IMG/VR virus record: IMGVR_UViG_3300021166_000052
Coordinates: 197,424-261,423 of that record
Length of the DNA stretch: 64,000 bases
Reading direction: 5' to 3' (one strand)
From: a virus
Lineage: Duplodnaviria > Heunggongvirae > Uroviricota > Caudoviricetes
Under the pieces are notes generated by a model. That model searched no databases and was not told the DNA's origin. It was given only the letters and a program-made list of their open reading frames with translations. Positions 943 through 39,728 of this stretch are shown piece after piece (positions within the stretch are counted from its first letter, which is position 1; each line of letters begins with the position of its first letter). The position numbers were made by a program, and so were the translations under genes.

Positions 943-2034
943 ATGAGTAAATTAATCATTAATAATCCTAAAAATAACTTTAGTGCAATCATACCACCTA
1001 CAAATAAAGATGGTAGTTATAATGGTTATTCGCGTGGGAGCATGTGGATAAATATATTAACAGGGGTATGTTATTTATGTGTTAATGATATTTTAAATGG
1101 AGCTATTTAGAATCCACTAAGCACTGCTGATATTTCAGCGTTACTACAACGTTTAGATAATTTATCAATAGATTCTACTAATTTCGATTATAGACTTGAT
1201 ATTTTAGAAAATGATTCAACTGAATATGATAATAGATTAAATATTGTAGAAAGTTATGAAAATAGGATAACTATTTTAGAAGATGATTATACTACAACTG
1301 AAAATGATATTACGAGTTTATTTAATGTGATTGAATTAGATGAAAGTATAATTTCCAATCACGATGTGCGTATTATTAGTATAGAAAATTATGATACCAC
1401 TAATACTTCACATTTAAATATATTAACACAAAATATAACGGATTTACAGGATCGGTTATTAACAGACGAAACTAATTTAAAATTAGTTAATTTATTGGAT
1501 GTAGATTTATCAACTGTCCCTATTGATAGTCAAGTATTGAAATATGATTCGACTAATAATATATAGAAAGCTGGTGAAGCTGTTAATGCAGTAGCTGGGC
1601 TGGTTGATGTAGATTTATCTATACCTGCTTTAAATGATCAAGTACTAAAATATAATTCTATTAGCGATAAATAGTCACCACAAAATGTCATGAAGAGTGG
1701 ATCTATAACATTTAATATTACAAATGATATTACTATATTAATGAATAGTGTTAGATAGTATCCATTGGAAGAAATTTAGTTAACATCTGTTCAATGTTTG
1801 GTCAGTTCTCCTCCATTAGGAAATAATATAATTTTAGATATAAAAAGGAATAACGTTTCTATATTAGAGGGAAGGATATTAACAATTACACAATCAAATA
1901 ATATTGGTAATATATTATTATTCGATAATATTAATGTATTATCAACTGATTATATTACGGTCGAAATTAAACAAATAGGATCATCAATGCCGGGAAGTGA
2001 CTTATCGGTTAGATTAAAATATAATTTATATTAA
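943..2034 (+). CDS. tail-fibre-like repeat protein (TAG-recoded, 5 in-frame TAG)
   Basis: Single frame (start mod 3 = 1) runs continuously from ATG 943 to TAA 2032-2034. It is interrupted only by TAG at 1108, 1564, 1672, 1756 and 1777. Two copies of a DxDLSxxxxDxQxLKYxS(TAG)K repeat shared with gene 23604-24131. ORF-track fragments 1327..1566 and 1798..2034 are pieces of it. Confidence 0.6.
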
Positions 2035-2045
2035 AGGGAAAATAA

Positions 2046-4085
2046 ATGTCAGTAACACTTAATACAATAGGAGCCAACTCAAGACAATTAGTAATTACAG
2101 AGGAAGTTGGCCCTACAAATATAATTACCGCAATAAATACATCATTAACTGATCTGGGATAGACGCTGCATGACACTATAGTATCAGGTTCAAAGAATTG
2201 TTATACTTGTAAAGTATATGTTGCTCCAAATAATGATACAGCAACAGGTGGACCAACTTATAAATATTTAATATTAAGATTTGATGCACCTAAACAACAG
2301 TAGTATACTAGTTGTTCTGAAAATTAGAATAATACAACCCACGTAGCAACTAATGAATGTTTTACCAATGGTAGATCAATCCCATTACCATTACAGTATG
2401 ATAATTGTACATTATATATTTTTGCATCTAATAGATATGCTGCATTTTTAGGTAATGTTAATTCTGAATAGAGTGCATAGCAAGGTGTATTTGAATTTGA
2501 ACGGGAAGCCCCTGAAGATACCGCAACACTAGGATATCCGTGTTTTGGATGGACAACCTCTTTAAATATAGGCGAACCATAGGCAGGATCATTAGCAGCC
2601 GCAACTTCTACATATGGTCCTCTTCCATATGTTTTTTCTGTTCCAAGAACACGGACAGGGAATACTGGATTTGCCGCTATAACCGAATTTACAATACATA
2701 CTGCATTTGGAATGTATCCACCTAATAATAGTATATTTACATTATATGGTGTAACAGGTGGATTAACTGCTGTTGATAATAGTCATAATGGGCATTTAGG
2801 CGCATTTAATCATGGATATCGTTAGGATGGTGGTAAAAAAATAGCAAGTTCATTAAAATTGGGAGGATTTTCTATAGCATATCCAACCGGTAGAATATAT
2901 GGATTGACTGTAATTCCACCAACTGGGGCTGTATTAGATACAGTTGTTATTCCTTATGATGTTGATAAAAACTTTTTTAGTACAGATGGAACAAATGTCA
3001 ACACATTCATTTTACCAATCTCTGGTGGTTATTCAGACACTCCCTCAGTTGTTGCAAATGGATTAATTTCAACCGCATTTATTGGCGGTCCAGCTTATAC
3101 GGTTAATAAAGTAGAATTGATTAAAGGTAGAGTTGCATACATGGCAACATCTGGTGGTATTGTAAAACTTGATCTTGGTACTGGTGTATATACTACATTA
3201 AGTACCGCATCACTTCCTATTCAAGATGTTAAATATGATGGAGGATTGTATTTATATTTCTCTACAGCATCTGGTGTAACAAGACTGACAGTTGCTGATG
3301 ATACTTTAACTACGTTAGCATGTGGGACTGGTGGAACCTCCGCATTAGAAGTAGATGATGATTTTGTTTATGCATCACATAGAACTACTAGCACAACACC
3401 TAAGTTGGATATTATTAATAATACGACGTTTACAGTAGCTAGAACCTATACATCTACATATACAATGGCTATTGCACAGTCATAGAATGCATTATGTACT
3501 GCTGATTATGATGGATATGTATATGCGGCTATGCCAATATCAGCTAGTTCAAATATCAATGATTTACGATTGTTTAAAATATTAGGATCAGATGGATCAT
3601 CAACCAATACATTACCTACACAACGAACAGTGTCAAGTACTGGCGGTTTTATGTTTTAGGATGGGTCATTAATAATTTTATGTTATTCAGCGGCAGCAGT
3701 ATCAATTAATGGAATATTACCGACTACACTAGCCGATGGTATAGTTCCTGTCAATTTTGCAGCTACATCACCTTATACTAGAACCGGTTATTTAAATTGT
3801 GTATATCCATTTAAAGGTTATTATATTATACCAATACCAACTGCAACAAAGGTTGCATCTTTTTATAATAGATTAAATCAGCTCAACACAACTGCATTTG
3901 CTACATTTGGGGCAACGAATAATTATATGACAATTTCAACTATTGGGATACCTACGGCAGGAGCTACTGATTGTTGTTCTATGATAGTGGGAGGGGCATG
4001 TAATTCATTTTATAAAATAAGCAACACCCATAATATTTATAATAATGCAGGACAGCCTACATCAAATATATTAATACCCGCATAA
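2046..4085 (+). CDS. large virion/tail structural protein (TAG-recoded, 9 in-frame TAG)
   Basis: Codon-by-codon check of frame 0 from ATG 2046 to TAA 4083-4085. The only interruptions are TAG at 2160, 2301, 2325, 2469, 2478, 2580, 2823, 3483 and 3657. Gly/Thr/Ser/Asn-rich like receptor-binding proteins. Only one TGG in 680 codons. Confidence 0.6.
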
Positions 4086-4089
4086 ACTA

Positions 4090-4560
4090 ATGGCAGAATA
4101 GACCCCCGATTTTACACCGGAAACGTTTTTTAATCACAACTATGCCTATGAATATCCAATTATGTTGGGTACATAGGCAAGTTGCGAGTTTCAAAGACAA
4201 TTGAATTTTACTATTATGCGTTTTTTTATACAATCCCAGATTATATTTAAACAAGATGTGTATAAATATCCTAACGTGATTGGTATGTGGAACAATACAA
4301 AATTTATACCAACAAATGCTTATAAGTATCCAAATTTAAAAGGATTATATACAACGTTGATATTCAATGTAAATCGGTCATTTACATAGTTGAATATAAT
4401 TAAATATGGATTAGCTATAAATTCATATACGTAGGAAATAACTCCCCCAAATGATAATTATTCTAAATGTTTAGCAACCGACTAGAGAGTTTAGAAACAA
4501 ATGTCAACTACCAACCAAACACAAACGATAACAAAATCATCGAATCAATATTAGGCATAA
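4090..4560 (+). CDS. hypothetical small protein (TAG-recoded, 7 in-frame TAG)
   Basis: ATG 4090 lies just after the upstream TAA. A single frame runs to TAA 4558-4560 with 7 TAG. Contains ORF-track fragment 4201..4389. Confidence 0.4.
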
Positions 4561-4712: not shown

Positions 4713-5198
4713 ATGAAAACCGAAGATAAATTTTTATTACATTTACTTGAAACCGCTATACGCATTGCTGTAACTGCTCATGCTGGGGTAATGGATAAAG
4801 CGGGTGTACCGTATATATTACACCCTCTCCGTATCATGGGTGGAGCCAAGGCACTTAAAGAGAAAATAGTTGGTGTTCTTCATGATACCATCGAAGATAC
4901 TGATGAAAACAGTTTATTAAATGTAACATTTGAATATCTTAGGGAAGAAGGGTTTCCTGATGATATCATTGAGGCGCTTGATTCCGTTACCCATCGTAAA
5001 GGTGAACCTTATGCAGATTATATACAACGTGCAAAGAAAAATATAATCGGTAGAAAGGTGAAAATACTTGACTTACGTGATAATTCTGATATATTCAGAT
5101 TACATTCGGTTGAGGAAAAGCATCTTAAACAAATGAAACGATATCATGCCGCAATGCTTGAATTGCGAAAGGATGGTAAAGTTTACATAACGAGGTGA
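4713..5198 (+). CDS. small alarmone hydrolase, RelA/SpoT-type HD domain ((p)ppGpp hydrolase)
   Basis: HD-domain motifs H...HD (LHDTIEDT) typical of SpoT/Mesh1 hydrolases. 161 aa, so a single-domain protein. Confidence 0.6.
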   Translation: MKTEDKFLLHLLETAIRIAVTAHAGVMDKAGVPYILHPLRIMGGAKALKEKIVGVLHDTIEDTDENSLLNVTFEYLREEGFPDDIIEALDSVTHRKGEPYADYIQRAKKNIIGRKVKILDLRDNSDIFRLHSVEEKHLKQMKRYHAAMLELRKDGKVYITR

Positions 5199-5199
5199 C

Positions 5200-5385
5200 A
5201 TGGAAATAGCAGATATTAAAATAAATAACAGTTATAGAGTAGTCTGTGGGTTTGATGAACGTTTTATGAACGATACAGTTGTTACTGTTATGGAAATCAG
5301 AGAAAGTGATTTACCATTCGTTTATTGTTACGGCTCACGGGGTGGATCAGCTTATATTAACATAAATAATTTAAAAAAAAAATAA
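5200..5385 (+). CDS. hypothetical small protein
   Basis: 61-aa ORF immediately after gene 4713. Confidence 0.3.
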   Translation: MEIADIKINNSYRVVCGFDERFMNDTVVTVMEIRESDLPFVYCYGSRGGSAYININNLKKK

Positions 5386-5464
5386 AATTGTAATTAACAC
5401 AATTTAGTGTTATACAAAATAAAAAGTCAACGATAATCAATAACTAATTGATGGAGACTAAACA

Positions 5465-5899
5465 ATGGAAGGATTGCGATACGTTTATTTTGGTGATGTA
5501 ATTGGAAAGCCTGATCATAAGGGCGTAGCTACAATCGGATATGCATATGATCCGGTTGATAAAAAAATGAAATATTCAGTTGCCTTCTGTAATCAGAAGG
5601 ATCGGTTTTTGAAATCCGAAGCACATAAACGCATCATTGCTCGGATGGAAGGTGGTGCAGTGTTTGTTGCGGGGTTTGATATTATTGATGATGTTGCCCC
5701 AAAGTATGAAGATACTATTAAGGACATCATTGACCAGTTTCAGGATTGCTTGACCCGGCCCATCATGGTTAAAGTGAAGGATAAGAAAACCCGTAAATAT
5801 CTCAGAAAACCAAACGGTGACTTTGTGATGGAAAAGGCGTATTTCTTTTGTAAGATTCGTGTTCCAAGCTGGGCCAAAAATATTATTAAACCGCGCTGA
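5465..5899 (+). CDS. hypothetical protein
   Basis: 144-aa ORF. The antisense ORF 5576..5929 is judged spurious. Confidence 0.45.
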   Translation: MEGLRYVYFGDVIGKPDHKGVATIGYAYDPVDKKMKYSVAFCNQKDRFLKSEAHKRIIARMEGGAVFVAGFDIIDDVAPKYEDTIKDIIDQFQDCLTRPIMVKVKDKKTRKYLRKPNGDFVMEKAYFFCKIRVPSWAKNIIKPR

Positions 5900-5955
5900 T
5901 AATATTTTTTTAACTTGTAAAATATCCACTGATGTGCTATTAAGTTAGTATATCG

Positions 5956-6918
5956 GTGGATATTTTTTTATATAGAGGACAAACTATTATGAATAATAAA
6001 TATAATGTTATAATTAGGGATGTTGGTGTATGTGGAATGAGGATTCAGATCGATGATCTTCACGATGCTCATATTGAACTAATTAACATAATGTTGGAAA
6101 CTCATAAACGGCTTATTATTGTACTAGGGGTGCGGCCTATTATATTTACTGCAAAAAATGCATTAACATTTCAAATGAGAAAACAGGCATTTTTTGAAGT
6201 GTTTGGAAATTATAAACATCGTATTACTTTATTATATATAAACGATGTAAGAGATGATCACATATGGTCAAATAATTTTGATAATCTTATCAAAAACAAT
6301 ATTAAGGAAAACGAAACTGTTAGATGTTGCGGAGGGAGGGATTCATTTTTAAATTATTATCATAATAATATTTATGAAAAATGGGTCATTACTGATTTTA
6401 CTCAGTCAGAATTCATTTCTGCAACTGCTAAACGGAATGAGATTGCTAAAACTACAATATTTGATTCTTCATTTAGGCGGGGTGTTATTTATTCCGCATT
6501 AAATTTACCGGGACAATGTGTGCCTTCAATTGATGTAGCAATATATGATCATTATGGTAATATATTAATGGGGCAACGGGTCGATGAATTATCATATCGT
6601 TTTATTGGGGGATGGGTTCAACCGAGAGAAACGTTTGAAATGGCGTGTAATCGAATTGTAAAAACCAAATGTGGAATCGCTATTGATAATTTACAACCAA
6701 TACGTAGTTTTTGTAATTTTGATTGGAAATTTAAAGGTGAACGAGATGATTTGACAACCATGTTATATACTGCATATATAACAGAAGGTACACCTGAACC
6801 ACTGGGAAATCTTAAATATCTACGATGGGTTTCGATTGTTGATATACTGAATGTGGTCGATTCAGAACATTTGGAATTGGCAAAATCTATTTACGAGTTA
6901 CATAATGCATCAAACTAA
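5956..6918 (+). CDS. NMN adenylyltransferase-like / Nudix-fold bifunctional protein (NatV/NadM-like)
   Basis: N-terminal cytidylyltransferase-like segment (G.R.Q....HDAH). C-terminal Nudix-like box GGWVQPRETFEMACNRIV, which is degenerate. Size and architecture match phage NatV, and it sits adjacent to Nampt. Confidence 0.5.
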   Translation: MDIFLYRGQTIMNNKYNVIIRDVGVCGMRIQIDDLHDAHIELINIMLETHKRLIIVLGVRPIIFTAKNALTFQMRKQAFFEVFGNYKHRITLLYINDVRDDHIWSNNFDNLIKNNIKENETVRCCGGRDSFLNYYHNNIYEKWVITDFTQSEFISATAKRNEIAKTTIFDSSFRRGVIYSALNLPGQCVPSIDVAIYDHYGNILMGQRVDELSYRFIGGWVQPRETFEMACNRIVKTKCGIAIDNLQPIRSFCNFDWKFKGERDDLTTMLYTAYITEGTPEPLGNLKYLRWVSIVDILNVVDSEHLELAKSIYELHNASN

Positions 6919-7159
6919 ATTAGGATCATTAATAGAGTCATCCACTAACGTAATCATAGGATATTTTATTGGTGTATTAACACAAATGTTATTATTTCCA
7001 TATTTCGGATTACATGTAACAATTGGCCAAAACATGTTGTTGTGTTTTTTATTTACAACAGTTAGTTTAATTCGAAATTATATAATCAGAAGATGGTTTA
7101 ATAATAGGTTGCATTTGTTTTCAGAAAAGATTAATATGATGGTACATGAAGTAAAATAA
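6905..7159 (+). CDS. small membrane protein (two predicted TM helices)
   Basis: In-frame ATG 6905 overlaps the end of the previous gene. Hydrophobic helices VIIGYFIGVLTQMLLFPYF and LLCFLFTTVSLI. Confidence 0.35.
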   Translation: MHQTKLGSLIESSTNVIIGYFIGVLTQMLLFPYFGLHVTIGQNMLLCFLFTTVSLIRNYIIRRWFNNRLHLFSEKINMMVHEVK

Positions 7160-7184
7160 ACCTTAGATAAAAAAATTAAACAAG

Positions 7185-8624
7185 GTGAATACAATGGAAC
7201 AAGATATGAGAAGTTTGGTAGAAGAATTTAATGTTATGACTGCAACCGATAGCTATAAACTCGGACGCGACCGCATGTTCTCTGAAGGGACCGAAAGTGT
7301 ATCCTCTTATTTTGAAGCTAGAGATGGTGCAAAATTTCAATATAATGTATTTTGTACACTCCAATATTTGTGTATGAAATATCTCTGTGGTAAGCAAGTC
7401 ACGAAAGCTAAAATCGATTGGGCTGAATATCTTTCTGAACTTCACCTCGGTCAGAAGGGCGCATTTGATCGATCCGGTTGGGATTACATCCTTCAAAAAT
7501 ACGATGGCCGGTTGCCTATTGAAATCTGTGCAGTTGCCGAAGGAACCCCTGTTCCAACTGGTAATGTTATGATGCAGATCAGAAATACCGATCCCAAAGT
7601 ACCAGTGTTATCAAATGCGATTGAGTCGATGATTACCCATGTTTGGGCAGGAACTACCGGAGCAAGTTTATCAAGGTATATCAAACAGATGCAAAAACGA
7701 TTTCTTGATATTTGTTGCGATACCCCCGATGAAGTTCTTCCTTTTATGCTGCATGATTTTGGTTATCGAGGGTCGTCAAGCCATGAATCTGCCAGACAAG
7801 TAGGCGCTGGTCACTTGCTCAATTTTTTAGGAACTGATACAGTACCAGCGATGGAATTGCTCATTCAATATTATGGAGCGTCTATTGATAGAGCGACTTT
7901 CAATGCAGGGTTTTCTATTTTTGCAACAGAACATCTTATCATGACTCAAAAAGGTGAAGCTGGTGAATTTGATGTAGTTGAAGAATTGTTGAATAAATAT
8001 CCCACTGGCAACCTTGCGATGGTAATTGATAGTTATAACTGGAAACGTTTTATTGAAACCATGGGAACACCTCGTTTCAAAGACCGTATATTGAACCGGG
8101 ATGGTAAGATTATTTTTCGGCCAGATTCAGGAAAGCCAGTTCCCACATCATTTGGTGTATGGAAAGGGCTTGCTAATATTTTTGGGTATGATACAAATAA
8201 TAAACGATATGATGTATTGAATCCAAAGGTTAGTACAATTTGGGGCGATGGTATTGATGAAGTCGAAGGTGAATCCATCTACCAAAACTTTATTGATAAT
8301 AAAATCTCGATTGAAAACTGTCCACTTGGTATGGGTGGCAATCTACATCAGAAAATCAATCGTGATACACAAAGGAACGCCTTTAAAGGTTCGTTTGTTC
8401 AACGTAATGGTGTTGGTTATGATATCTTTAAAGACCCCATTGATGGTAGTAAAAAATCTAAAAAGGGTAGGCTTGCTTTGATTAAAGATGCGGCGGGTAA
8501 TTTCCAAACCCTTCAGGGTGTGACCGGTCCAGTTGAGGGTGATCTTCTAATCCCAGTATTCCGTAATGGTGAGATGTTGAAAACATATACCCTTAATGAA
8601 ATGAGAGCAAACGCTGCATTATAA
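7185..8624 (+). CDS. nadV: nicotinamide phosphoribosyltransferase (Nampt / NadV)
   Basis: 479 aa. N-terminal TDSYK motif and overall Nampt-like length and composition. No in-frame TAG and six TGG Trp codons. Confidence 0.75.
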   Translation: MNTMEQDMRSLVEEFNVMTATDSYKLGRDRMFSEGTESVSSYFEARDGAKFQYNVFCTLQYLCMKYLCGKQVTKAKIDWAEYLSELHLGQKGAFDRSGWDYILQKYDGRLPIEICAVAEGTPVPTGNVMMQIRNTDPKVPVLSNAIESMITHVWAGTTGASLSRYIKQMQKRFLDICCDTPDEVLPFMLHDFGYRGSSSHESARQVGAGHLLNFLGTDTVPAMELLIQYYGASIDRATFNAGFSIFATEHLIMTQKGEAGEFDVVEELLNKYPTGNLAMVIDSYNWKRFIETMGTPRFKDRILNRDGKIIFRPDSGKPVPTSFGVWKGLANIFGYDTNNKRYDVLNPKVSTIWGDGIDEVEGESIYQNFIDNKISIENCPLGMGGNLHQKINRDTQRNAFKGSFVQRNGVGYDIFKDPIDGSKKSKKGRLALIKDAAGNFQTLQGVTGPVEGDLLIPVFRNGEMLKTYTLNEMRANAAL

Positions 8625-8627
8625 TTG

Positions 8628-8686
8628 TTGACATATTGTTAATTATTAGGTATAGTCTGGGTTATTAAATTAGCTCAGACTATACC
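8628..8686 (+). promoter_or_regulatory. promoter TTGACA-17-TATAGT overlapped by an 11-bp inverted repeat (ggtatagtctg...cagactatacc)
   Basis: -35 at 8628-8633, -10 at 8651-8656. Inverted-repeat arms at 8649-8659 and 8676-8686 bracket the -10 and +1 region. Followed by an AAGGAG RBS and ATG 8708. Confidence 0.4.
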
Positions 8687-8707
8687 TATTTTAAAGGAGA
8701 TAAATAA

Positions 8708-9067
8708 ATGTTAATTAGATCAGTTGCTATTGTTTTAGGCGATAATGATTTTGGCCAGACATTTCATAATTTATTAGAAACTATTTTACGTGTTATCGTG
8801 AATGATCCTATTATTAGTGAATATAGTATAGAAAAAATTATTAAAGAGGGCCTACGCTTTCACTACATTGCTTTTCAAAATAAATATGATCCATATTATG
8901 GGAATGGAGTGGATTCATTTAAAAAACATTTTGATCATATTGAAAATTATTTATCATCAATTCGCATTTATTTTAATGATGATGCCGAGCGAGAGTTTGA
9001 AAACGGGGATCATGATGGCGGAGCATGGATTTTATGTATACAAGATGGTTCGATTACATCATTTTAA
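8708..9067 (+). CDS. hypothetical protein
   Basis: 119-aa ORF with a strong RBS. Confidence 0.45.
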   Translation: MLIRSVAIVLGDNDFGQTFHNLLETILRVIVNDPIISEYSIEKIIKEGLRFHYIAFQNKYDPYYGNGVDSFKKHFDHIENYLSSIRIYFNDDAEREFENGDHDGGAWILCIQDGSITSF

Positions 9068-9092
9068 TGAAATAATAATGAAAGTGTGAAAA

Positions 9093-9614
9093 ATGATTAC
9101 ATTAGCAACAACATGTGGTATCTTTATTATAAATAAATTCAAACAAATACTTACATGTCATCCAACGGGTCATCATCCATTGCAATTGGATATACCAAAA
9201 GGATGTTTAGATCGAGGAGAAACTGTGTCTCAATGTGTTGTTAGAGAACTGTTAGAAGAAACTGGGATTGATTATTATACATTACAGCGGCCATTAATAG
9301 ATATTAGTGCGATACATGGGACATTTATATATAAGCATAAGAAAAAACAATTATATACATTTATGTTACAACTAAATGACACAATAGATGTAACTACCTT
9401 GAAATGTACAAGTATGGTTACGAGTGTACCCATTCCATTTCCAGAAGTAGATTCTTTTGCATGGATAGAATATAACGAAAGAGAGTTGCTACATGAATCT
9501 CAGCAACGTGCCATAGAAGTAATTAATGATCAATATAATATATTTGATTTACATTCATCCAAAGATGAAAATACTCAATATATAACAATTTCTAAAAGTA
9601 ATAATTATGGTTAA
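9093..9614 (+). CDS. Nudix hydrolase
   Basis: Canonical Nudix box GCLDRGETVSQCVVRELLEETGI (G-x5-E-x7-REUxEExGU). Confidence 0.7.
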   Translation: MITLATTCGIFIINKFKQILTCHPTGHHPLQLDIPKGCLDRGETVSQCVVRELLEETGIDYYTLQRPLIDISAIHGTFIYKHKKKQLYTFMLQLNDTIDVTTLKCTSMVTSVPIPFPEVDSFAWIEYNERELLHESQQRAIEVINDQYNIFDLHSSKDENTQYITISKSNNYG

Positions 9615-9714: not shown

Positions 9715-11343
9715 ATGTTAAGATATCAGCCTAAATATAATGTTAATGTAGATTCAACTGGATCTGGGGATTCTACAACAATAAATTTAATAAACGCGGG
9801 TAATGTTTAGGTAACAAATATTACATCTGGGGGTATTGTTTCTTCTAAAACATATATTCCCAATACTGTCCCTGCTAATTATATTTTAACTGCTGCTACA
9901 ACAGATCATCAAACTGTAACAATATTTTTTATTGCAGAACCTACAACATTATAGTCTCCAACTATTACAGTAGATGGAATAACGTGTACTAATTTAACAC
10001 AATATGCAGATGATAGACGATTATTTTCAGGGTCTGTTACAATAACAGTCGCATCATCAAAAACGGTTACACTAACTTCGAATACAGGGAAAAGTACAAC
10101 TGTTCAAGTCAATCGAGCCGCAATGGCCCCAACTATAACCGATATCAGATTTATTAATGGATATCCGGGTACTCAAACCGAAGTTAAACAAAATGATACA
10201 TTGACAGTTCGTGTAACATTTGATCCAGCAGGAACTGCCCCCACCCAAATAGATGTTATGGATTATGGTATATCACAATCTAAGACAGTTTTAACATCTT
10301 CAACTGAATTATCATAGGGAACAGTTCACACCGCCACATTTACAATATCCACAAAATATGTAGGCAACACTGCCCAATTATTACCTATACAATTACGAGC
10401 AAGAAATTTATTTGGTACTGCTAGTAATTATATAATTTCCAATGTATATGGTACTACGGAAACTATACAGGTAATGAAAGGATGTGATTTAGTTCCTACT
10501 ATTACTGTTAATGCCACTACATACCCATCGGGGCAGGGAGCTTTTAAAAATACAGAATCTGGTAACATAAATGTTACTATTTCTAATTATACAGGTGTTA
10601 CATATTCTTCTCCAAATGGAAATTTTACAATTACATCTCCAACTATATATGCTGCGTCAAAAACTATAACTTGTACTCATCCCGGAACATATAATGATTC
10701 TGTAAATAATATTAGAGTTGTAGCTACTCGTTCTGCAAATGCAACTTCTACAACAGCAAATTTCATAGTAGAAGTTGCAGATATTGCGCCTACTGTGAAT
10801 GTATATCATTCTGAATCATATTTAAGATCTACTGAAGCCGGTTACACTTATACTATATATGCTACTAGTAATCAAAATCTATTATCAGCCCCATCTTTTA
10901 ATATACCAGTTTCTGGTATATAGGTTGCTGGTGCATTTACTGGTTCTAATAAAAATTAGCAGCGAACAATATCTATTAGGGATAGTGATATAAAAGGAAC
11001 GGCTCCATAGAGTGCTACTATATTACCAACTAATAAAGCTAAAATTGATGCAATAATTACTGGAAACCAAATTGTTAGGGGATTTAGATCGAGAATTTTA
11101 CCATTACCTGCTTTTGGAACCAGTTGTACGTTAGGGACCGCTGTAACAAGTATTGCAAATTTAGTATTTTCATAGAGTTTTAAAACAGCTATGGCATATT
11201 CCCCAATTGGATCAGTTGCACCAATTGTAGGTGGATAGACTATTAGTGCATTAAATAATAATCCAACAACTATTTATATTTTAGATTCTCAGGCGGCGGC
11301 TGCTTCATCAGCGGCCAGCACAATAACTATAGAGGAAACATGA
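9715..11343 (+). CDS. virion/tail structural protein (TAG-recoded, ~9 in-frame TAG)
   Basis: Single frame from ATG 9715 to TGA 11341-11343. ORF-track pieces 10123..10317 and 10474..10923 are in the same frame. Thr/Ser/Asn-rich. No TGG seen in the long fragments. Confidence 0.55.
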
Positions 11344-15926: not shown

Positions 15927-15939
15927 GAGGAGATGAAAC

Positions 15940-16707: not shown

Positions 16708-16718
16708 AGGGAATAAAA

Positions 16719-17114: not shown

Positions 17115-17914
17115 TGGCGGCATATAAACAATATATTAAAGAATAGGATACTAAACCTCCATCTGGTACAAAATTAAGAACCGATGGCCATTAGTCTGTT
17201 AAAAATCTAGTATATTGTAATACATTTAATGATTCATTTACAGAAAGTGTCAACGGAATAATTGGTACACCTTATGGTAATATATTAACACCAGATGGTG
17301 TTTGTTTTACAAATGATACTGATAAATTAGTATATCCAGCTAATACATTTAAAATGTTAGGTTCACTAATTGGCCCCTATACAATTTTATTTTCGTTTAG
17401 ACCACCAGATATATATCAAACAGAAGCAAATTCATATATTATTGGCAACGGATCACAAGAAATAGCTTTATTTTAGGTAGGCCCATCTACATTTAATATG
17501 GATTTTACAATGGGACTATCATCATTAAATCAATTAAATACGGCTCTACATTACGACCAATAGCAACACTGGCAATTAATACGTACATTACAGGGAACAA
17601 TATCATTTTTAAATGGTGTTATGATAGAAGCATCAGACGAACCGGAGTATGGTGATATAATAACTACAAATCCATAGATTTTTGGTAATAATAGCACAGA
17701 TACAGGGGTATTTAAAGGAACAATCGGGTATTTTTATATTTATAACACTGATTTTGTTAATTATCATACCCCGACATAGGAACTAGATTCTTTATAGAAA
17801 AATCCATACCAGATGTTTGAATCAGAAGTATTATATATTGATCAAGAAAAACCAAAAATGTATAATATAACTGAAACTAATAGATCACAAAATTCGATGT
17901 TAATTGGTTAGTAA
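17114..17914 (+). CDS. LamG/concanavalin-like jelly-roll protein (paralog 2; ~8 in-frame TAG)
   Basis: Read by eye in frame 2 from ATG 17114 to TAG-TAA at 17909-17914. N-terminal 60 aa are about 60% identical to gene 15940. C-terminal FKGTIGYFYIYN motif. Confidence 0.4.
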
Positions 17915-17957
17915 TGTTAATAAAATAAATTAATTATTAAATATAAGGTTTTGAAAA

Positions 17958-18275
17958 ATGATTCCAAAAATAGAAGATAGAGATTATAAATATCAAGGTA
18001 ACAATATTTGTAGTATTTTTGCTACTTTAAATATATATGCTGATGACAACACAACTATCGTAGATAGTGTAAAGTTACAAGCAAATTTTGATATATCTGA
18101 TGTAGATAATGTTGTTGCGTTTGCAACCGAACAATTATCATCACAAGTAATGGATTATATGTCAAAATTAGTTTATATTGATAATTTAAGAAAACAGATA
18201 TTTCCAACGTCAATAGACTTTAAAGACGCAATTAATTCTATATTAGATCCAATTCAAGCATCACTTGTTGGATAA
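17958..18275 (+). CDS. hypothetical protein
   Basis: Complete 105-aa ORF. Confidence 0.45.
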   Translation: MIPKIEDRDYKYQGNNICSIFATLNIYADDNTTIVDSVKLQANFDISDVDNVVAFATEQLSSQVMDYMSKLVYIDNLRKQIFPTSIDFKDAINSILDPIQASLVG

Positions 18276-18309
18276 TATAATAAAATAAGAAATAAATAGG
18301 AGATCAAAC

Positions 18310-19776
18310 ATGTCATTAGATACAACAATTAAAGGATCGACAACTGGAAATGGTGCAGAAGTTGATTCTGTTCATAGATTAAAAGTAAACTTAGCAACCG
18401 GTGATGTACCAGCGGAAGTGGGCGGGGTACGCAATTTTTCCGAAGTAGATCCCGGTACACGAACAGGCTCTCCTTTATTACGATCAAATGAAGTTAGTAT
18501 GGATTATCGAGCTAGAGTTGGAACTGATACTGTTCTATTTAGTGATATCTTTAATGCTGGTGCCCAAAATATTAGTTTATATAAATGTGCATTCACCACA
18601 ATGACATTAACTCAATCTGCTGGATTTTTGAATATAAATGCAGCGGGAACATCTACAGTATCTGGTAACTATGCACAATTACAAACATAGAGATATTTTC
18701 CTTTGATTGGAACATCGCCACTCGCTGTAGAATTTGTAATAATGGTTGATAGATATCCAGTTGCAAATGAAACATTTTTATGTGGTTTGGGCGTAGCGAA
18801 TGCTGCAAATGAACCAATTGATGGTGTGTAGTTTGAATATACTGATGCTGGATTGAAGGGTTGTCAAAAATATAATAGTGGCGTTACTGATAAAGTACTA
18901 TTAATGAATGCTAATGAATTAACTTTTAATACTACTAAAAAATTTGTATTAGTTGTTAGTTATGATAAAATAGAATTTTAGATCAATGATATTTTATATG
19001 GTACATTAAATAGAGATGCTGCAACTGGTATACCGTTTATTACTGGGGCATTACCATGGTTTTGTACTAAATATAATAATGCTGTAATTGGAACATCTCC
19101 AAATATGAAAGTAATGATTGCTAATGTAAATATTACTTTAATGGATATTTCCTCTAATATGACATAGAGTGGCCAGATGGCCAGTGCTGGTCTTGTTATG
19201 CAGCAGATGAATGGTGGTACTGCTGGTTCCCCACAAGTCCAATGGGCTAATACTGCATTACCTACAGCAGCAGCAGCAACAAATACTACAGCGGCATTGG
19301 GGGCATTTTTAGGAGGTATTTTCCAAATGAACGCTCCTGCAACATCCGCAACTGATATTATTATAGCTAGTTATTTAAATCCAGTCGGTGGCGTTGCACA
19401 GACTCCACGAACAATTAAATTAAGAGGAATTAAAGTAGATTGTGTTAATGCAGTTGTTGCTGTTGCCACAACAGCTACTACATTTGCAGTAGCTGTAGCA
19501 TAGGGTGGAACAACTTTAACATTAGCAGCCACTGAATCTGCAAGTTTCGCAACTGCAACTGTCAAAGCTCGTAGAATACAACCAATTGGTGTAATAACAT
19601 TCCCGATTGCATCACCGGTAGGATATGCAGCATCGCCAATTCAGTTCGATTTTGAAGCACCACTTCTTATAAGTCCGGGTGAGTATGTTCAAATAATAGC
19701 AAAACCACTAATTGGAACAGCGACATCAACTGAAGTATTTCAATGGATTATATCACCAAATTTGTATTGTGAATAA
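18310..19776 (+). CDS. large structural protein (5 in-frame TAG)
   Basis: Fragments 18310..18690 and 19177..19503 are in the same frame. Continuous to TAA 19774-19776. Ala/Thr-rich. Confidence 0.5.
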
Positions 19777-19795
19777 TATTGTGGTATATTGATAT

Positions 19796-20278
19796 ATGAA
19801 ACAAAAAATAAGTAAATCTATAATTAGAGACTTATCTGAAGCAGCATCGGTTGTACTTATAAATGATAGTACAACCGATGCTGCTTGGTATCCTATAGTA
19901 GCATCAATATCATCTGGTACTGTATCTAATATATATACAAGTTCTACTAAATTAACATTTAATCCCGCAACTGGAAATTTTAGTGCAACTCAATTTACGT
20001 CATTATCAGATAAAAAATTAAAAGAAAATATACAACCAATAGAAGATGCGCTTTATATAATAAATCAGTTAGAAGGTGTAGAATTTGATTGGAAAGATTC
20101 TAAAAATCATAGTTCTGGTTTAATAGCACAGGATGTAGAAAATATACTACCATTTTTAGTTGTTGAAACAGAAAATAAATCTATAAATTATAATGGTATT
20201 ATAGGATATTTAGTAAATGCTATCAATGAGTTACATCAAGAAGTTAATATATTAAAACAAAAACTAGAAGATAAATAA
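19796..20278 (+). CDS. short tail fibre/spike with C-terminal intramolecular chaperone autoprotease (peptidase S74) domain
   Basis: LSDKKLKENIQPIEDAL...LEGVEFDWKD...GLIAQDVENILPFLV is the classic S74 / endosialidase-chaperone signature. Confidence 0.7.
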   Translation: MKQKISKSIIRDLSEAASVVLINDSTTDAAWYPIVASISSGTVSNIYTSSTKLTFNPATGNFSATQFTSLSDKKLKENIQPIEDALYIINQLEGVEFDWKDSKNHSSGLIAQDVENILPFLVVETENKSINYNGIIGYLVNAINELHQEVNILKQKLEDK

Positions 20279-20280
20279 AG

Positions 20281-20844
20281 ATGGAAAATAGTAATTTTAT
20301 TGGTTACAATAATACTTATTATTGTAACTCTGACTTAGATTCAATTTATGTAACTGAACAATATATCATTGATAGATTTGGTGGTTTTAATTTGATGAGT
20401 TAGGGATGGAACAACGGTGGCCAACTAGGCTCAGAAAATATAGTAAATCGGTCTTCCCCAGTACAAGTGGGTAGTTTAACTAATTGGAAGTTGGTTTCAT
20501 GCGGAAGCTATTCAACATTTACATTAGCAATTAAAAATGATGGTACTTTATAGTCTTAGGGAAATAATAATGAAGGTCAATTGGGATTAAATGATACTAC
20601 CCCTTATTCTTCACCTGTACAAGTTGGAAGTTTAACTGATTGGAAGTTGGTTTCATGTGGATTATATCATACCATGGCAATTAAAACCAACGGAACGCTG
20701 TAGGCGTTTGGTTATCATGGTAATGGTGAATTAGGATTAAATGATATAATAAGTCGCTCTTCACCTACTCAAGTTGGTAGTTTAACAACTTAGAAAGATG
20801 TCTCCGCTGATTGGGGACAGACTGTGTTATTATTAAATGATTAA
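20281..20844 (+). CDS. RCC1-repeat protein (5 in-frame TAG, each at a conserved Trp position)
   Basis: Codon-checked single frame. Repeats of GTL(TAG)S(TAG)GNNNEGQLGLND..SSPVQVGSLTDWKLVSCG match the RCC1 consensus GTLWAWGxNxxGQLG. The third repeat has SLTT(TAG)KDVSA where the other repeats have SLTNWK / SLTDWK with TGG. Confidence 0.7.
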
Positions 20845-20896: not shown

Positions 20897-21448
20897 ATGA
20901 ACATAAACATCGGATCTGGTTATAAAAAATATAAAGATTACATAAACTTAGATGCTGATTTCAATTGTAATCCTGATATTTTATTTGATTTAGAAAATGA
21001 CATCTTCCCATTTGAAGACAGTTCTATTGATAAAGTAATAGCACATCATATTTTAGAACATATTGGAGATGGATATTTTCATGTTTTAAAAGAATTGTAT
21101 AGAATATGTAAACATGGAGCAATTATCGATATCCGCGCCCCACATCATAATCATGAAGTATTCCATAATGATCCAACCCATAAAAGACCCATCACAGTTG
21201 AAGGTATGCGTCTTTTTTCAAAAAAATATAATAAATATGAAATTGATAGAGGGGGATCTTCTTCTACACTCGGTATTATTTATAATATAGATTTTGAAAT
21301 TGTTGCATTTGATTATGTATATGATTCGTTTTATAATGAAATATTTAAAACAAACACCCAAACTCAAAATATTAGGTTATGTAGAGAGTTTATAAACACT
21401 ACATTAGAAACCCATATTATTATTACACCAATTAAGGACGTTATATAA
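20897..21448 (+). CDS. class I SAM-dependent methyltransferase
   Basis: N-terminal IGSG..Y.....N.D motif and overall Methyltransf_11-like pattern. No TAG. Confidence 0.55.
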   Translation: MNINIGSGYKKYKDYINLDADFNCNPDILFDLENDIFPFEDSSIDKVIAHHILEHIGDGYFHVLKELYRICKHGAIIDIRAPHHNHEVFHNDPTHKRPITVEGMRLFSKKYNKYEIDRGGSSSTLGIIYNIDFEIVAFDYVYDSFYNEIFKTNTQTQNIRLCREFINTTLETHIIITPIKDVI

Positions 21449-22788
21449 TGCATTTACAAACTATTATAGATTTTTTAAGTAAGGTCGATGAATTAGAAAC
21501 TGCTAAAATAATATTAACAACATTTTCTAAATATGCAAAAAATTTACAACAGTATGATGAGTTGGGTATGTTATTTGAAAAGATTAAAGACTATAATGAT
21601 TCAATAGCTATGCTAGAAAACTGTTTAAATATAGCAACATCAACAGAACAGTTATATTCAATTCGTGCAAATTTAGCAAAAGTGTATAATCATCTCAACG
21701 AACCTTATAAATCATTATTCTATTCTAACTTAAATTATGAATTAGTAAAGACGGATTATGATACTCAAATGGAACAGAGTTTTTCATACTATTTAATAGG
21801 TGATTTTAATAAATCATATCAAATACAATTAGACCTTTTGAATATTAATAATATATCAGATGAAATTCATAAAAAAATCCGTTTTAACATGGGAACATTT
21901 GAAATTGCAAATGGTGATTTTAAAAGTGGGATGAGGAATATTGTAGTCGGTGGTAAAGATATAGGAATTTGGAAATCTATAAATAGATTTTATGATAAAT
22001 GGGATGGAGGTGTAACCGATAAAACATTGTTAATATTTGCAGAAGGTGGAATCGGTGATGAAATTATTAATGTTAGATTTATGAGTGTTTTAAAAAATAA
22101 AGGTATAGATGCCATTTGGATTGGTCATAATATTGAATTGATTAATTTATTTCAAAGAAATGGATTTAATGCATGTTTAGAATCTAATATTGATCCACTA
22201 CAAGATTATGTATATTGTGAATCAATGATGTTATCAGTGTTATTAAATATAGAAGAATTTGAATTATATAACGGGTCATATTTTAAACCATCTCAACAAT
22301 ATATTGATAAGTGGAAGTTACTATTACCTGATAAATTTATTACTATTAAATGGTCAGGCAATCCATTTTATGATCATGATTTACATAGGACCGTCCCAAT
22401 TGATAGATTAATAAATACAATTAGAGAAAAAACTGATATACCCATTATTTCATTACAACTAGATGATACCGCTGGTATTCATAATGATTATATATTATAT
22501 GATATACAATCATGGGAAGATACATTAGCTATTCAATCATTAGCTAAATTAAATATTACATCTTGTACAAGTACCGCTCATACAGCATCTGCAATGGGAG
22601 TTGATTGTGTAGTTATTCCACCAATATGTACATACTTTCCATGGTTAAATTTAAATGAAAATCATACTAGTAAATGGTATGGAAAAACCACAAGAATATA
22701 TCCACAAACCAAATGGAAAGATTGGTCAGATCCACTTGAATATATTGCACAAGAATTATTATTATTAAATAAAACGGAGATTATATAA
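21448..22788 (+). CDS. putative glycosyltransferase (GT9/heptosyltransferase-like core with N-terminal helical extension)
   Basis: TLLIFAEGGIGDEIINVRF resembles the GT9 ILIIRxxxIGDVI motif. Weak. Confidence 0.35.
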   Translation: MHLQTIIDFLSKVDELETAKIILTTFSKYAKNLQQYDELGMLFEKIKDYNDSIAMLENCLNIATSTEQLYSIRANLAKVYNHLNEPYKSLFYSNLNYELVKTDYDTQMEQSFSYYLIGDFNKSYQIQLDLLNINNISDEIHKKIRFNMGTFEIANGDFKSGMRNIVVGGKDIGIWKSINRFYDKWDGGVTDKTLLIFAEGGIGDEIINVRFMSVLKNKGIDAIWIGHNIELINLFQRNGFNACLESNIDPLQDYVYCESMMLSVLLNIEEFELYNGSYFKPSQQYIDKWKLLLPDKFITIKWSGNPFYDHDLHRTVPIDRLINTIREKTDIPIISLQLDDTAGIHNDYILYDIQSWEDTLAIQSLAKLNITSCTSTAHTASAMGVDCVVIPPICTYFPWLNLNENHTSKWYGKTTRIYPQTKWKDWSDPLEYIAQELLLLNKTEII

Positions 22789-23574
22789 ATGAAAACTTTT
22801 TATTTTTTAGCGGGGTTGCCTCGATCTGGGTCAACTGTATTGGCCTCAATTTTAAATCAAAATCCGGGTATATATGTGACACCCACAAGCCCAATGTTAG
22901 ATTTATTGATAGCTAATCAAAATGCTTGGTATGATGCCCCATCGGTAAAAGCAAATCCTTTTCCAGAACAATTGACAAATATTACAAGGGCAATGATTGC
23001 TGCATCATGGCAACACCGACCCGAAAATATTATAATTGATAAAAATAGAGGATGGATGAAAAATATTGAAGCGTCTGAAATATTATTTAATAAAAAAGTT
23101 AAGATGGTTGTCACTACCAGAGATTTACCTAGTATAATGGCATCGTGGTTACGATTGATAAAAGATAACACTGACTGTTATTTTATAAGAATGCTAAAAG
23201 GTAAACATCTTAAAATTACAGATGATAGTATATTATCAGAAATGTGGTTTAATATGGTAAAAGATTGTATGGAAGGTTTAAAAAATGTTAAATTAATTGC
23301 ATCTGATAGGATACTCTTAATTGATTATGATAATTTTGTAAATAATCCATATGATATATTAAATAATATAACTACATTTTTAGAATTACCTATTTATAAT
23401 TATGACATTAATAATATTATAAATGATACTCATGATGATGATCTTACTGCGTGGGGTTTAGATGGTATGCACACAATACGGCCAATTTTACAAAAACAAT
23501 CAAATGATCCACGAATGTTATTAGGTGATCATTTATATAATAGATTTATTCATATAGAAAAACAATACAATTAA
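22789..23574 (+). CDS. sulfotransferase-family protein
   Basis: N-terminal GLPRSGSTVL matches the PAPS 5'-phosphosulfate-binding loop (PKSGTT-like) of sulfotransferases. Confidence 0.5.
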   Translation: MKTFYFLAGLPRSGSTVLASILNQNPGIYVTPTSPMLDLLIANQNAWYDAPSVKANPFPEQLTNITRAMIAASWQHRPENIIIDKNRGWMKNIEASEILFNKKVKMVVTTRDLPSIMASWLRLIKDNTDCYFIRMLKGKHLKITDDSILSEMWFNMVKDCMEGLKNVKLIASDRILLIDYDNFVNNPYDILNNITTFLELPIYNYDINNIINDTHDDDLTAWGLDGMHTIRPILQKQSNDPRMLLGDHLYNRFIHIEKQYN

Positions 23575-23603: not shown

Positions 23604-24131
23604 ATGGCTGAACAACAAATTGATAAAAATGTACTTAAAAACTTACCCGATATATTACTTGATAATTTAATTGATGTGGATTCAAGTGGTGTATTAAGTG
23701 GCCAAATTTTAATTTATGATTCAACTTCAAACACTTAGAAAGCAGGAGAAAATTTAATTGATATATCATTTGAAGATATATCAAATATTGACCTAAGTGT
23801 ACCGCCCATAGATGGCCAAACGTTAATTTATGATGCTACTAGTGATAGTTAGAAACCCGGTGAAAATACATTTATATTATCATTAGATGATATTTCTGAC
23901 ATTGATTTAAGTGTCCCGCCAACTGAAGGTCAAATATTAAAATTTGATTCAACAAGTGATAATTAGAAAGCTGCTGATAATATAATTGAAATTGAATTAG
24001 ATGATATTTTAAATGTTGATTTAAGCGTTGCTCCGACAGATGGACAAATATTGATGTATGATTCAACATCAAACACATAGAAAGCCGGTGATGGTGGAGG
24101 CACTGGTATTTTAGATGGAGGTACATTTTAA
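23604..24131 (+). CDS. tail-fibre repeat protein (4 tandem ~40-aa repeats, each with one TAG)
   Basis: Four copies of DLSVPPxDGQxLxYDSTSxx(TAG)KAGE. Same repeat family as 943..2034. TAA overlaps the next ATG. Confidence 0.5.
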
Positions 24132-24343
24132 TGATTATAATTACAAAACATACACCAACCCCCGGAAAAGTTCCAACAAGTACAGATTTAGTTGTTGGTG
24201 AATTGGCAGTAAATACGAACGATAAAAAATTATTCACTAAACATACTGATAATAATATTATAGAGATTGGAGGTGGTTCCGGTGGAACTTCTGGTACATT
24301 TCCAGAAGTAGATTTATTACGAATGGCACTAGGAATAATTTAA
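24131..24343 (+). CDS. hypothetical small structural protein
   Basis: 70-aa ORF in an overlapping TAATG junction. Confidence 0.4.
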   Translation: MIIITKHTPTPGKVPTSTDLVVGELAVNTNDKKLFTKHTDNNIIEIGGGSGGTSGTFPEVDLLRMALGII

Positions 24344-24355
24344 TAGGTTAATTAA

Positions 24356-24733
24356 ATGGCAAGCAGTCCACAATATACAGCGATTCCTAAAGTAGGAATA
24401 GGAAAAATTTCAGTAGCAAATACTAGTTTAACTGGTACAGGAACACTTGTTAATGTTGTTAGTGCTGGTACAAATGGGTCAAGAGTTGATAGTGTAACAG
24501 TTAAGGCAACTACAACTACCACAAATGATATAGTACGATTATTTTTATATGATGGATCTATATATTCACTATTAACAGAAATATTAGTGTCGGCAATAAC
24601 AATAAGTTCAACTATAAAATCATTTGAAACTACCATTACATTGGGTATTGTTATTCCATCTGGTTATAGTTTATATGCATCAACTCATGTTGGACAGAGT
24701 TATAATATTCTTTCATTTGGCGGTGATTTTTAA
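24356..24733 (+). CDS. hypothetical structural protein
   Basis: 125-aa ORF. TAA overlaps the next ATG. Confidence 0.4.
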   Translation: MASSPQYTAIPKVGIGKISVANTSLTGTGTLVNVVSAGTNGSRVDSVTVKATTTTTNDIVRLFLYDGSIYSLLTEILVSAITISSTIKSFETTITLGIVIPSGYSLYASTHVGQSYNILSFGGDF

Positions 24734-26121
24734 TGAACTATGGTACATTTGGGTTTCCACTAAAACAAACTACATCGACATCATTAGCTGATTCATCATA
24801 GGCTACTGTTACATATGATTGGGTATCAGATGATAATTTTATTCCCGGTGATGTTGTTACAATGACCAAAGGATTAATAAAAAAACCGTTTTAGCCTTTA
24901 CCAGAATTATCAACTGTAACAGATACTGAATTATCTAAAATTACACATGCTGGTCAAGTGGGACTGGGCGCAGGTACTTCTATATGTAGTTTAAATAATG
25001 GTAACTATGCAACAATTGTTAATATGAGTTTTTGTATTTTCGATTATAATGATAGATTAATATCACAAGTAGCATTAGATATTTATGCGGCAGAGTATTC
25101 TGTGGTTAAACAATTAAGTGATGGTAATATATTAGCAGCGTAGTCAGCTAATGGTGCGCTTAAATTTATAATTTATAATACATCAGGGTCGGTTGTTGTT
25201 TCCGTTAAAACTATATTAGCTTCTGGTTCTCCAACTTATATAGATGCTGCTGTTTATAATGGTGGATTTTTAGTTTGTTATCGACCAGCCACCCCATATT
25301 ATCCAACTTATACTAGATATAATAATGCAGGAACTCAACAGCTTGCACCAAGAACAGTAGGAACGGCAGCTTGTACTTTTGCACATATAACAGTTTTATC
25401 AAGTGGTGATTATATATTATCATTTCTTGATACAACCGCTACTTTTGTTAAATAGCAACGGTATAATAGTTCAGATGTAGCACAGGGATCATTGACATCA
25501 TTAAATGCAATTGCTACTAGTGTGTTTGATGTTACCGCACAAAAAGATGGGGGCTTCGTGTTTGTTTAGAAAGCCACTGCTACTTATAATTTATATGTAG
25601 ATAAATATAATTCATCATTTACAAAAATAGTTACTTCATCATGGGTTTGTAAAGGAGAATCATCTGCTACCAGAGTATTAGATATAGAAGAAGCATATGG
25701 TACAAATGAAATATTGATAATATGTAGAGCAGAAACATCAGCAGGGGCTTATATAAGTAGATTAGAGCCAACTACATGTATTTTAATAAAAACCATTTAT
25801 AAAGTACAAAATGTTGGGTCGTATGCAAATATATGTGGCCTAACAAATGGTAATTATATATATACTTTCGGATTATCTGGGTCGGCTGCATTATATATAT
25901 ACAAACATGCAACTTATACTATAACTATATTAGGAATAGCAGAAAACGTTGCACCCACTGGAAATATAGTAACTGTGAGATTTCATGGAAATAATGCGAC
26001 TGATACAATCGTTCCGGCCAACGTCGATTATGGGACCGAGGCCAAACTATTTGATCATAGTTCGACAGGGGGATGTAGAGGAACGTTCATAAATAAAAAT
26101 TGTTTTTTACGAGGAATGTAA
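24733..26121 (+). CDS. structural protein (~6 in-frame TAG)
   Basis: ATG 24733. Fragments 24958..25143 and 25714..26121 are in the same frame. Confidence 0.5.
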
Positions 26122-39726: not shown

Positions 39727-39728
39727 TC

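Follow-up and report, generated by a model that had tools for sequence, protein, structure and literature searches.

Stop-codon recoding in the late genes of phages is a known phenomenon. In phages whose code differs from that of the host, the main survey of recoded phages found only two reassignments, TAG to Gln and TGA to Trp, and explained them by the mischarging habits of the glutaminyl- and tryptophanyl-tRNA synthetases (GlnRS and TrpRS). A suppressor tRNA is found in 35–40% of the genomes of the known recoded phages, sometimes together with TrpRS or a release factor. Here we describe a 64-kb stretch of a Caudoviricetes genome (IMG/VR record IMGVR_UViG_3300021166_000052, positions 197,424–261,423; henceforth the window), in which about 17 genes use UAG as a sense codon that, as judged from homologous proteins, stands for Trp. 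The kind of system is known, but the assignment of this codon to this amino acid is new for phages. A full-text literature search found no report of UAG as Trp in a phage, albeit its coverage was incomplete and an earlier description is possible.

In the TAG-to-Gln phages (Borges et al. 2021, preprint; Peters et al. 2022), which use genetic code 15 and include crAss-like, Lak, and Agate phages, TAG is concentrated in late, structural, and lysis genes, and the early genes follow the standard code. The window follows the same pattern, and the likeness extends to a host that presumably uses the standard code and to the proposed translational timing lock. Unlike in those phages, the residue is Trp, about 75% of the Trp codons of the recoded genes are TAG, the 64 kb revealed no suppressor tRNA, and the genome is that of a 31% G+C jumbo phage that has a tail protein in common with phiKZ-like phages. 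The TGA-to-Trp phages (code 4; among them Jade phages, which encode a TrpRS and release factor 1 [RF1] of their own) also turned a stop codon into a Trp codon in late and lysis genes; in the window, by contrast, the codon is TAG, and TGA is a working stop that never occurs in frame. The anticodon CUA disturbs the recognition by TrpRS more than UCA does.

Outside phages, UAG is read as Trp in the plastids of Balanophoraceae, whose code is NCBI translation table 32; the statement in the first-pass annotation of the window that no standard table contains this assignment was wrong. In Balanophora plastids, a tRNA-Trp with anticodon CUA and the loss of the release factor pRF1 have been implicated in the reassignment, which was called exceptionally rare. 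The window resembles these plastids in that UAG is read as Trp in an AT-rich genome. On the other hand, the plastid code applies to the whole genome and pRF1 was lost, whereas only a part of the virus genome is affected here and the host presumably keeps RF1. The amber suppressor su+7 (supU) of E. coli is a tRNA-Trp with anticodon CUA, which GlnRS charges with Gln in place of Trp (Yaniv et al. 1974). A tRNA-Trp reading UAG through an anticodon mutation would be the simplest model for the decoder in the phage as well, but su+7 carries Gln and the phage proteins described below require Trp.

UAG as a sense codon in the virion modules

The window has a G+C content of 31–32%, carries nearly all of its genes on the plus strand, and gave neither a megablast match in INPHARED nor an exact match of its 37-mers in IMG/VR, in metagenome contigs, or in GTDB genome contigs. 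A public 208-residue protein (P0176) is an exact fragment of the product of the window gene at 2046–4085 and belongs to a JGI/IMG contig of 276,095 bp. The window is therefore part of a jumbo phage, namely 64 kb of a 276-kb genome, and the searches for window features reported below cover these 64 kb.

Under the standard code, the regions 943–4560, 9715–20844, and 23604–26121 fall into short fragments. When TAG was treated as a sense codon, the same three modules turned into long, densely packed plus-strand open reading frames (ORFs) that were interrupted by TAG only. The modules contain 74 in-frame TAG codons in 15 genes, and the gene of a peptidase (51015–51752) and that of a small membrane protein (38774–39250) add four and two, respectively, amounting to 80 TAG codons in 17 genes. 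The first-pass annotation had counted about 70 TAG codons in at least 18 structural genes; the TAG-rich modules are real, but the number of genes comes down to 15–17. An automatic set of ORFs that bear TAG and have 100 codons or more was also compiled (n = 19); it includes two doubtful single-TAG ORFs (37058–37438 and 57621–58448). Four smaller TAG-bearing ORFs (28612–28857, 44408–44632, 49849–50073, and 60749–60973) are probably not real genes and were set aside.

Over the 5,793 codons of the automatic set, 80 TAG, 0 TAA, and 0 TGA were found in frame, in contrast to 563 TAA, 320 TGA, and 288 TAG in the two off-frames. Such an accumulation of TAG without a single in-frame TAA or TGA is explained neither by chance nor by gene decay. 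All of the TAG-bearing genes terminate at TAA or TGA, and at several junctions they overlap by TAATG or ATGA or lie 2–12 bases apart. TGA serves as a working stop, ending 22 of the 91 ORFs and occurring in frame in none of them. The 54 TAG-free genes of at least 100 codons comprise 11,884 codons with no in-frame TAG. The first-pass annotation had already noted the single frame kept across the TAGs, the termination at TAA or TGA, and the absence of in-frame TAG from early and auxiliary genes, all of which held in our analysis. As about 17 of the approximately 90 ORFs use TAG as a sense codon, the assignment is not genome-wide; the recoded codon is confined to the virion modules, the peptidase, and the membrane protein, and the genes for NAD salvage, RNA ligases, and radical SAM enzymes lack it.

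The residue encoded by UAG

Three large alignments, together containing 22 TAG columns, were prepared for the products of the genes starting at 9715, 18310, and 2046 (40, 120, and 31 homologs, respectively). The highly conserved 488-residue structural protein at 18310–19776 (five TAG and three TGG codons) provided the clearest case, as its five TAG columns are occupied by W in 109, 118, 120, 120, and 120 of the 120 homologs (91–100%). The tail protein at 9715–11343 (eight TAG and no TGG; phrog_15433, E = 1.8e-65) is related to phiKZ gp145/gp146, annotated as "tail sheath" or "tail assembly". It is 30–34% identical to the gp145/146-type proteins of PhiPA3, Noxifer, PaBG, and NCTB, and the genes around it are not in common with these phages. 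Its homologs have a majority of W at X201, X403, X415, X432, X487, and X508 (X standing for a TAG codon), F at X32, and Y at X80; Q is the majority residue at none of these positions. In the 679-residue virion protein at 2046–4085 (nine TAG and one TGG), W was found at X39 in 30, at X94 in 29, at X145 in 31, and at X260 in 26 of the 31 homologs. The remaining five columns vary, mostly among hydrophobic or aromatic residues (F/Y/W/L/I/V), and X142 is mostly P. Altogether, 15 of the 22 columns have W as the majority residue, several of them at 97–100%, the others being dominated by F, Y, or P, and Q is among the top residues at none. A Codetta-style log-odds calculation over the same columns yielded +65.2 nats for W, −8.5 for F, −8.7 for Y, and −67.2 for Q. 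As a control, the procedure recovered the standard residue for 44 of the 48 sense codons with at least five columns, and the four misses were low-count codons with margins below 5 nats.

Smaller families point in the same direction. In the papain-family cysteine peptidase at 51015–51752 (four TAG; PF00112; PDB 3ois, E = 1e-49), X113, X214, and X240 face W of 3ois, including that of the invariant NSWG, and X8 faces Y. In the RCC1-repeat protein at 20281–20844 (five TAG and four TGG; PF00415, E = 8e-27), the TAG of "sXG" takes the place of W in the WG motif, and the internal repeats read GSLTNW, GSLTDW, and GSLTTX. When different residues were put at TAG, the Pfam score of RCC1 was 118.7 bits with W, 116.6 with F, 110.9 with Y, 103.1 with L, and 89.5 with Q, and that of Peptidase_C1 was 62.3 with W, 59.6 with Y, 56.0 with F, 54.0 with Q, and 53.7 with L.

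The fiber-like proteins gave comparable results. The seven phage homologs of the tail-fiber- or head-decoration-like protein at 13438–14967 (three TAG; phrog_2647 and others) have W opposite X205 in six cases, opposite X235 in five, and opposite X50 in three, two of the latter being the only matches that extend to the N-terminus. X242 of the 293-residue fiber-like protein at 12560–13441 (one TAG) faces W in an IMG/VR homolog (L050), and so do X231 and X256 of the 313-residue fiber-like protein at 14985–15926 (seven TAG and no TGG) in the homologs L097 and L098. The fiber protein at 23604–24131 consists of four repeats with one TAG each, and its repeat "DGQ.L.YD.TS..XKpGe" matches "DGQVLKWDAVADKWKPGN" in a Mesorhizobium phage tail fiber; the repeated fiber motif "...YDsts..XKpGe" likewise corresponds to "...WDAVADKWKPGN" in a Mesorhizobium phage fiber. 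Two of the five TAGs in the tail-fiber-like gene at 943–2034 (one TGG; open only with TAG as sense) lie inside the repeated motif "vLkYDsts..X", of which the counterpart in the Mesorhizobium phage tail fiber is "...DKW", and three TAGs in the gene at 14985–15926 lie within a "YDs...X" motif.

TGG makes up 0.45% of the codons in the TAG-bearing genes and 1.16% in the 54 TAG-free genes (2.6-fold; Fisher p = 1.4e-6), and about 0.34% in the three modules. With 80 TAG and 26 TGG, about 75% of the Trp codons in the TAG-bearing genes are TAG, and the two codons together account for 1.83% of the codons. Gln codons are not clearly depleted (2.83% vs. 3.28%), nor are Tyr and Phe codons.

The best database match to the 9715 protein was a 329-residue fragment (P0001; 75% identity), which starts shortly after one TAG position of the window and stops exactly at another. 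P0001 is encoded in a 23.6-kb Logan contig (SRR23971560_821; L015 hereafter), in which the gene order NUDIX-NadV-NUDIX-tail protein is the same as in the window. Read with TAG as a sense codon, the L015 ortholog is 70% identical to the 9715 protein over the full length. Of the eight TAGs in the window gene, four are matched by TAG and four by TGG in L015, and all four TGG codons of the L015 gene face a window TAG. In the gene for a 206-residue protein at 11401–12021, the single TAG of the window is matched by TGG, and the window has Y and F opposite two TAGs of L015. Over both genes, a window TAG thus faces either TAG (four times) or TGG (five times), but never CAA or CAG, and every TGG of the two L015 genes lies opposite a window TAG. 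The swap of TAG and TGG at orthologous sites therefore indicates that the code is also in use in a second phage, which comes from a different sample, and that the two codons behave as synonyms. The more distant homologs are full-length proteins in the standard code with W at the TAG sites (38–49% identity for 9715 and 60–67% for 18310). Among 80 IMG/VR loci found with the 9715 alignment, no comparable gain of ORF coverage was seen with TAG as sense, and essentially all of them use the standard code. Scans of IMG/VR and GTDB for close relatives with a fragment of the 9715 gene gave no match, and neither did tblastn searches of INPHARED with the 2046 and 18310 proteins.

On the basis of these comparisons with homologous positions, we regard Trp as the residue encoded by UAG in these genes. 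The first-pass annotation had preferred Trp to Gln and had named the RCC1, Peptidase_C1, and tail-fiber families, all of which indeed favored Trp over Gln. It was also right about the direction of the TGG depletion, the size of which (0.2% vs. 1.3–1.5%) had been overstated.

Proposed decoding of UAG and alternative explanations

We consider it very likely that, in a 276-kb jumbo phage, UAG stands for Trp in the virion genes and probably in further late genes, and that the early and auxiliary genes follow the standard code and do without in-frame UAG. Somewhat less firmly, we favor the wider proposal that this is the first natural phage code with UAG as Trp. It would operate by Trp-specific amber suppression in a bacterium, through a tRNA-Trp(CUA) that escapes mischarging with Gln, possibly aided by a dedicated TrpRS or a countermeasure to RF1, and would lock the translation of virion genes until late in infection. 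The code would be shared by at least two related phages of different samples, with the conversion of TGG to TAG still ongoing.

By analogy with the TAG-to-Gln and TGA-to-Trp phages, the suppressor tRNA that reads UAG, with anticodon CUA and Trp identity, would be encoded by the phage itself, in the approximately 212 kb beyond the window. The tRNA would be produced during infection, charged by the TrpRS of either the host or the phage, and then outcompete RF1. Late mRNAs would be fully translated only once the phage has switched the code of the cell, which would subject the virion and lysis genes to a timing lock.

Several observations weigh against this interpretation. No tRNA(CUA) was found in the 64-kb window, even by a permissive Rfam scan, in 11.9 kb of the relative, or among the 39 tRNAs in 178 related loci, and no gene for TrpRS or a release factor is among the annotated window proteins. 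In E. coli, TrpRS no longer recognizes a tRNA-Trp that has the anticodon CUA, which is charged with Gln instead, and phage tRNA(CUA) molecules act as GlnRS substrates in E. coli extracts. To deliver Trp specifically, an amber suppressor would therefore require special identity elements or a host whose GlnRS does not behave in this way. The assignment of genes to early and late was inferred from gene function and promoter-like motifs. Sigma-70-like promoters were found upstream of 4713 and 8708, and a TTGACA-N16–18-TATAAT-like site precedes 10 of the 25 TAG-free genes with an upstream gap, compared with one weak site in 10 TAG-bearing ORFs, but this contrast alone is not significant. Finally, X32 and X80 of the 9715 gene are dominated by F and Y, respectively, and five columns of the 2046 gene are not dominated by W. 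The identity of the residue is therefore unproven site by site, which leaves room for ambiguous decoding.

The last point bears on the alternative that fares best, in which TAG stands for one of the aromatic residues Tyr and Phe or is read ambiguously as Trp plus Tyr, Phe, or Gln. Besides X32 and X80, it could accommodate X480 of the 2046 gene and X8 of the peptidase, the RCC1 score with F just 2 bits under that with W, and the two TAGs of L015 that face Y and F. Nevertheless, F and Y fall 74 nats below W overall, and the near-invariant W columns (the five in 18310, X145 and X39 in 2046, and NSWG of the peptidase) would be left unexplained. Exchange among W, F, and Y is ordinary at variable sites, and the usage of TAT and TTT is undepleted in the TAG-bearing genes, in which TGG is depleted. 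We regard such decoding as improbable.

Trp could be inserted without any suppressor tRNA if the middle A of UAG in the mRNA were deaminated to inosine, so that UIG is read as UGG. A-to-I editing at an amber/W site is known from hepatitis delta virus. Editing would account for Trp in particular and for the lack of tRNA(CUA) in the window, but a comparison of 78 in-frame TAGs revealed no common sequence context beyond the normal codon periodicity. In addition, off-frame TAG is not avoided in the TAG-bearing genes (n = 276; 25.6 per kb vs. 17.3 per kb in the TAG-free genes), and a UAG-specific editor would cause missense changes on a massive scale. No deaminase domain is present among the annotated proteins, and approximately 80 such sites in a phage have no known precedent. 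Off-frame TGG is not depleted either (27.8 per kb in the TAG-bearing vs. 20.6 per kb in the TAG-free genes). Combined with the absence of a shared context, the off-frame frequencies therefore indicate decoding that depends on the reading frame and exclude a base-calling artifact. With the artifact excluded and editing very unlikely, a translational explanation remains, namely a Trp-carrying tRNA whose anticodon is CUA.

The reading of TAG as Gln, which is the code 15 of crAss-like, Lak, and Agate phages, has precedent on its side, being the sole TAG reassignment so far reported in phages that differ from the host code, and GlnRS readily charges amber suppressors. The data described above leave it hardly any probability. 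The three large alignments have practically no Q in their TAG columns (−67 vs. +65 nats for W), Q gives the lowest (RCC1) or a near-lowest (Peptidase_C1) Pfam score, TGG and not the Gln codons is depleted in the TAG-bearing genes, and L015 exchanges TAG with TGG but never with CAA or CAG. It is equally far-fetched to regard the TAGs as real stops, be it in pseudogenes, truncated products, genes with programmed readthrough at a few sites, or sequencing and assembly errors. Standard gene callers do split the genes, as seen in P0176 and P0001, but the frame is held across up to nine TAGs per gene with no TAA or TGA, colinear full-length homology to intact proteins spans the TAGs, the same pattern recurs in an independent sample, and the undepleted off-frame TGG argues against a G-to-A miscall. 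Pyrrolysine or another non-canonical residue can practically be dismissed, since, although some archaea and bacteria use TAG for pyrrolysine, the 80 sites are in structural proteins, TAG falls on invariant Trp positions of unrelated families, and no pyl genes are among the annotated proteins.

A TAG-to-Trp phage breaks the rule drawn from the survey, and the choice of the amino acid for a captured stop codon would be less constrained than has been thought. Gene callers for viromes that model TAG recoding as code 15 (Mgcod) would place Gln at approximately 80 conserved Trp positions in the window, which would harm homology searches and structure prediction; prodigal-gv likewise models TAG recoding as code 15. 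Standard callers shatter the genes, and the public entries P0001 and P0176 are the resulting fragments. The natural delivery of Trp at UAG in a bacterial context would be a useful part for genetic-code expansion, because the tRNA-Trp(CUA) of E. coli is charged with Gln. Moreover, the related pair of phages with TAG/TGG swaps offers a view of codon reassignment spreading through late genes, some of which are shared with standard-code phages.

Other genes and tRNAs of the window

The remaining TAG-bearing genes, all on the plus strand as are those described above, include that of a 156-residue protein at 4090–4560, which maintains a single frame across seven TAGs and ends at TAA. The LamG-like protein at 17114–17914 (eight TAG; Laminin_G_3, weak match with E = 4.9e-4) overlaps the preceding gene by TAATG and has a paralog at 15940–16707. 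The upstream extension of the latter is homologous to the N-terminus of the former, with two TAG positions in common ("EXD" and "HXS"). We therefore assign a probable TTG start to the paralog, which gives it five TAGs. The ORFs for a 131-residue protein with one TAG at codon 3 (16719–17114) and for a 462-residue virion protein with five TAGs (24733–26121) are open with TAG as sense. The small protein at 38774–39250, another TAG-as-sense ORF with two TAGs, has a C-terminal membrane helix, and this hydrophobic tail makes a lysis-related late function possible.

The 488-residue protein at 18310–19776 has hundreds of homologs with 60–67% identity, none of which bears a Pfam domain. In the three contexts examined (L096–L098), the homolog is located at or near the end of the structural block, and the phages are otherwise unrelated. 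This distribution suggests a widely exchanged virion or host-recognition protein, of which the TGG codons were partly converted to TAG after entry into this lineage.

The TAG-free genes form a standard-code block with NUDIX, NadV/NAMPT, and a second NUDIX (4713–9614), an insert between the virion modules that encodes a methyltransferase, a protein of no annotated function, and a sulfotransferase and uses 16 TGG for Trp (20897–23574), and a mostly TAG-free auxiliary and early region with RNA ligases, radical SAM enzymes, RNase H, nicotinamide mononucleotide adenylyltransferase (NMNAT), and others (26237–64000), all on the plus strand. Genes for a macro domain, an HD domain, an RNase T-like exonuclease, an SLT lysozyme, and three to four radical SAM enzymes are among them as well. 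An NAD+ salvage set is spread over 5989–9614 and 51833–52918 and consists of NUDIX, NadV/NAMPT, the second NUDIX, and a CoaE-like kinase fused to an NMNAT-like cytidylyltransferase. Three RNA ligases (one T4 Rnl1-like), the macro domain, the RNase T-like exonuclease, and the HD-domain protein (26237–27322, 48250–49269, 59295–59927, 39262–40256, and 60085–60822) look like an extensive set for the repair or processing of RNA or tRNA. The genes at 28913–30241, 31352–32680, and 34544–35302 encode a fusion of HATPase_c_3 and an SprT-like domain, an SPFH/Band-7 protein, and a DUF2491 protein, which may constitute a defense or counter-defense cluster. The sole convincing minus-strand ORF (27999–28385; 128 residues) lies in a 640-bp "gap" with a flip of both GC and AT skew, next to the probably spurious plus-strand ORF at 28612–28857.

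In two ORFs outside the virion modules, TAG may be a genuine stop that is followed by a second one: the one at 44172–44447 ends with TAG-TGA (44445–44450), and the one at 37058–37438 has TAG seven codons before TGA (37412–37438). The second stop would possibly be a safeguard against readthrough late in infection.

The only tRNAs found in the window are tRNA-Leu (781–866) and tRNA-Ser(GCU) (62155–62242). The former is located directly upstream of the first TAG-rich module, but the letters "TAG" in it are its anticodon and do not make it an amber suppressor. We rejected it as the decoder, as anticodon UAG reads CUA/CUG, and its long variable arm, A73, and encoded CCA are of the Leu type. The radical SAM protein that follows tRNA-Ser(GCU) (62155–63448) has a weak match to the UPF0004 N-terminal domain and resembles methylthiotransferases of the MiaB/RimO type. 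MiaB-type enzymes modify A37 of tRNAs for codons starting with U, UAG among them; a tie between this protein and suppressor efficiency is speculation.

Two further genes connect the window with other contigs. The first ORF (27–359), which the edge of the window probably truncates, has 52% identity to an L015 gene (4993–5382); the L015 gene has a weak match to Pfam YqeY (a GatB-like tRNA-binding domain), and the window copy has no Pfam match. A 161-residue protein with the motif HDTIEDTD (4713–5198) is 89% identical to its counterpart in L015 (5532–6008). A metagenome scan with its gene retrieved one match of 80% identity (4358–4840 of L099), in a 67-kb metagenome contig that is otherwise unrelated and has no other gene in common with the window. 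The 161-residue protein thus appears to move between phages.

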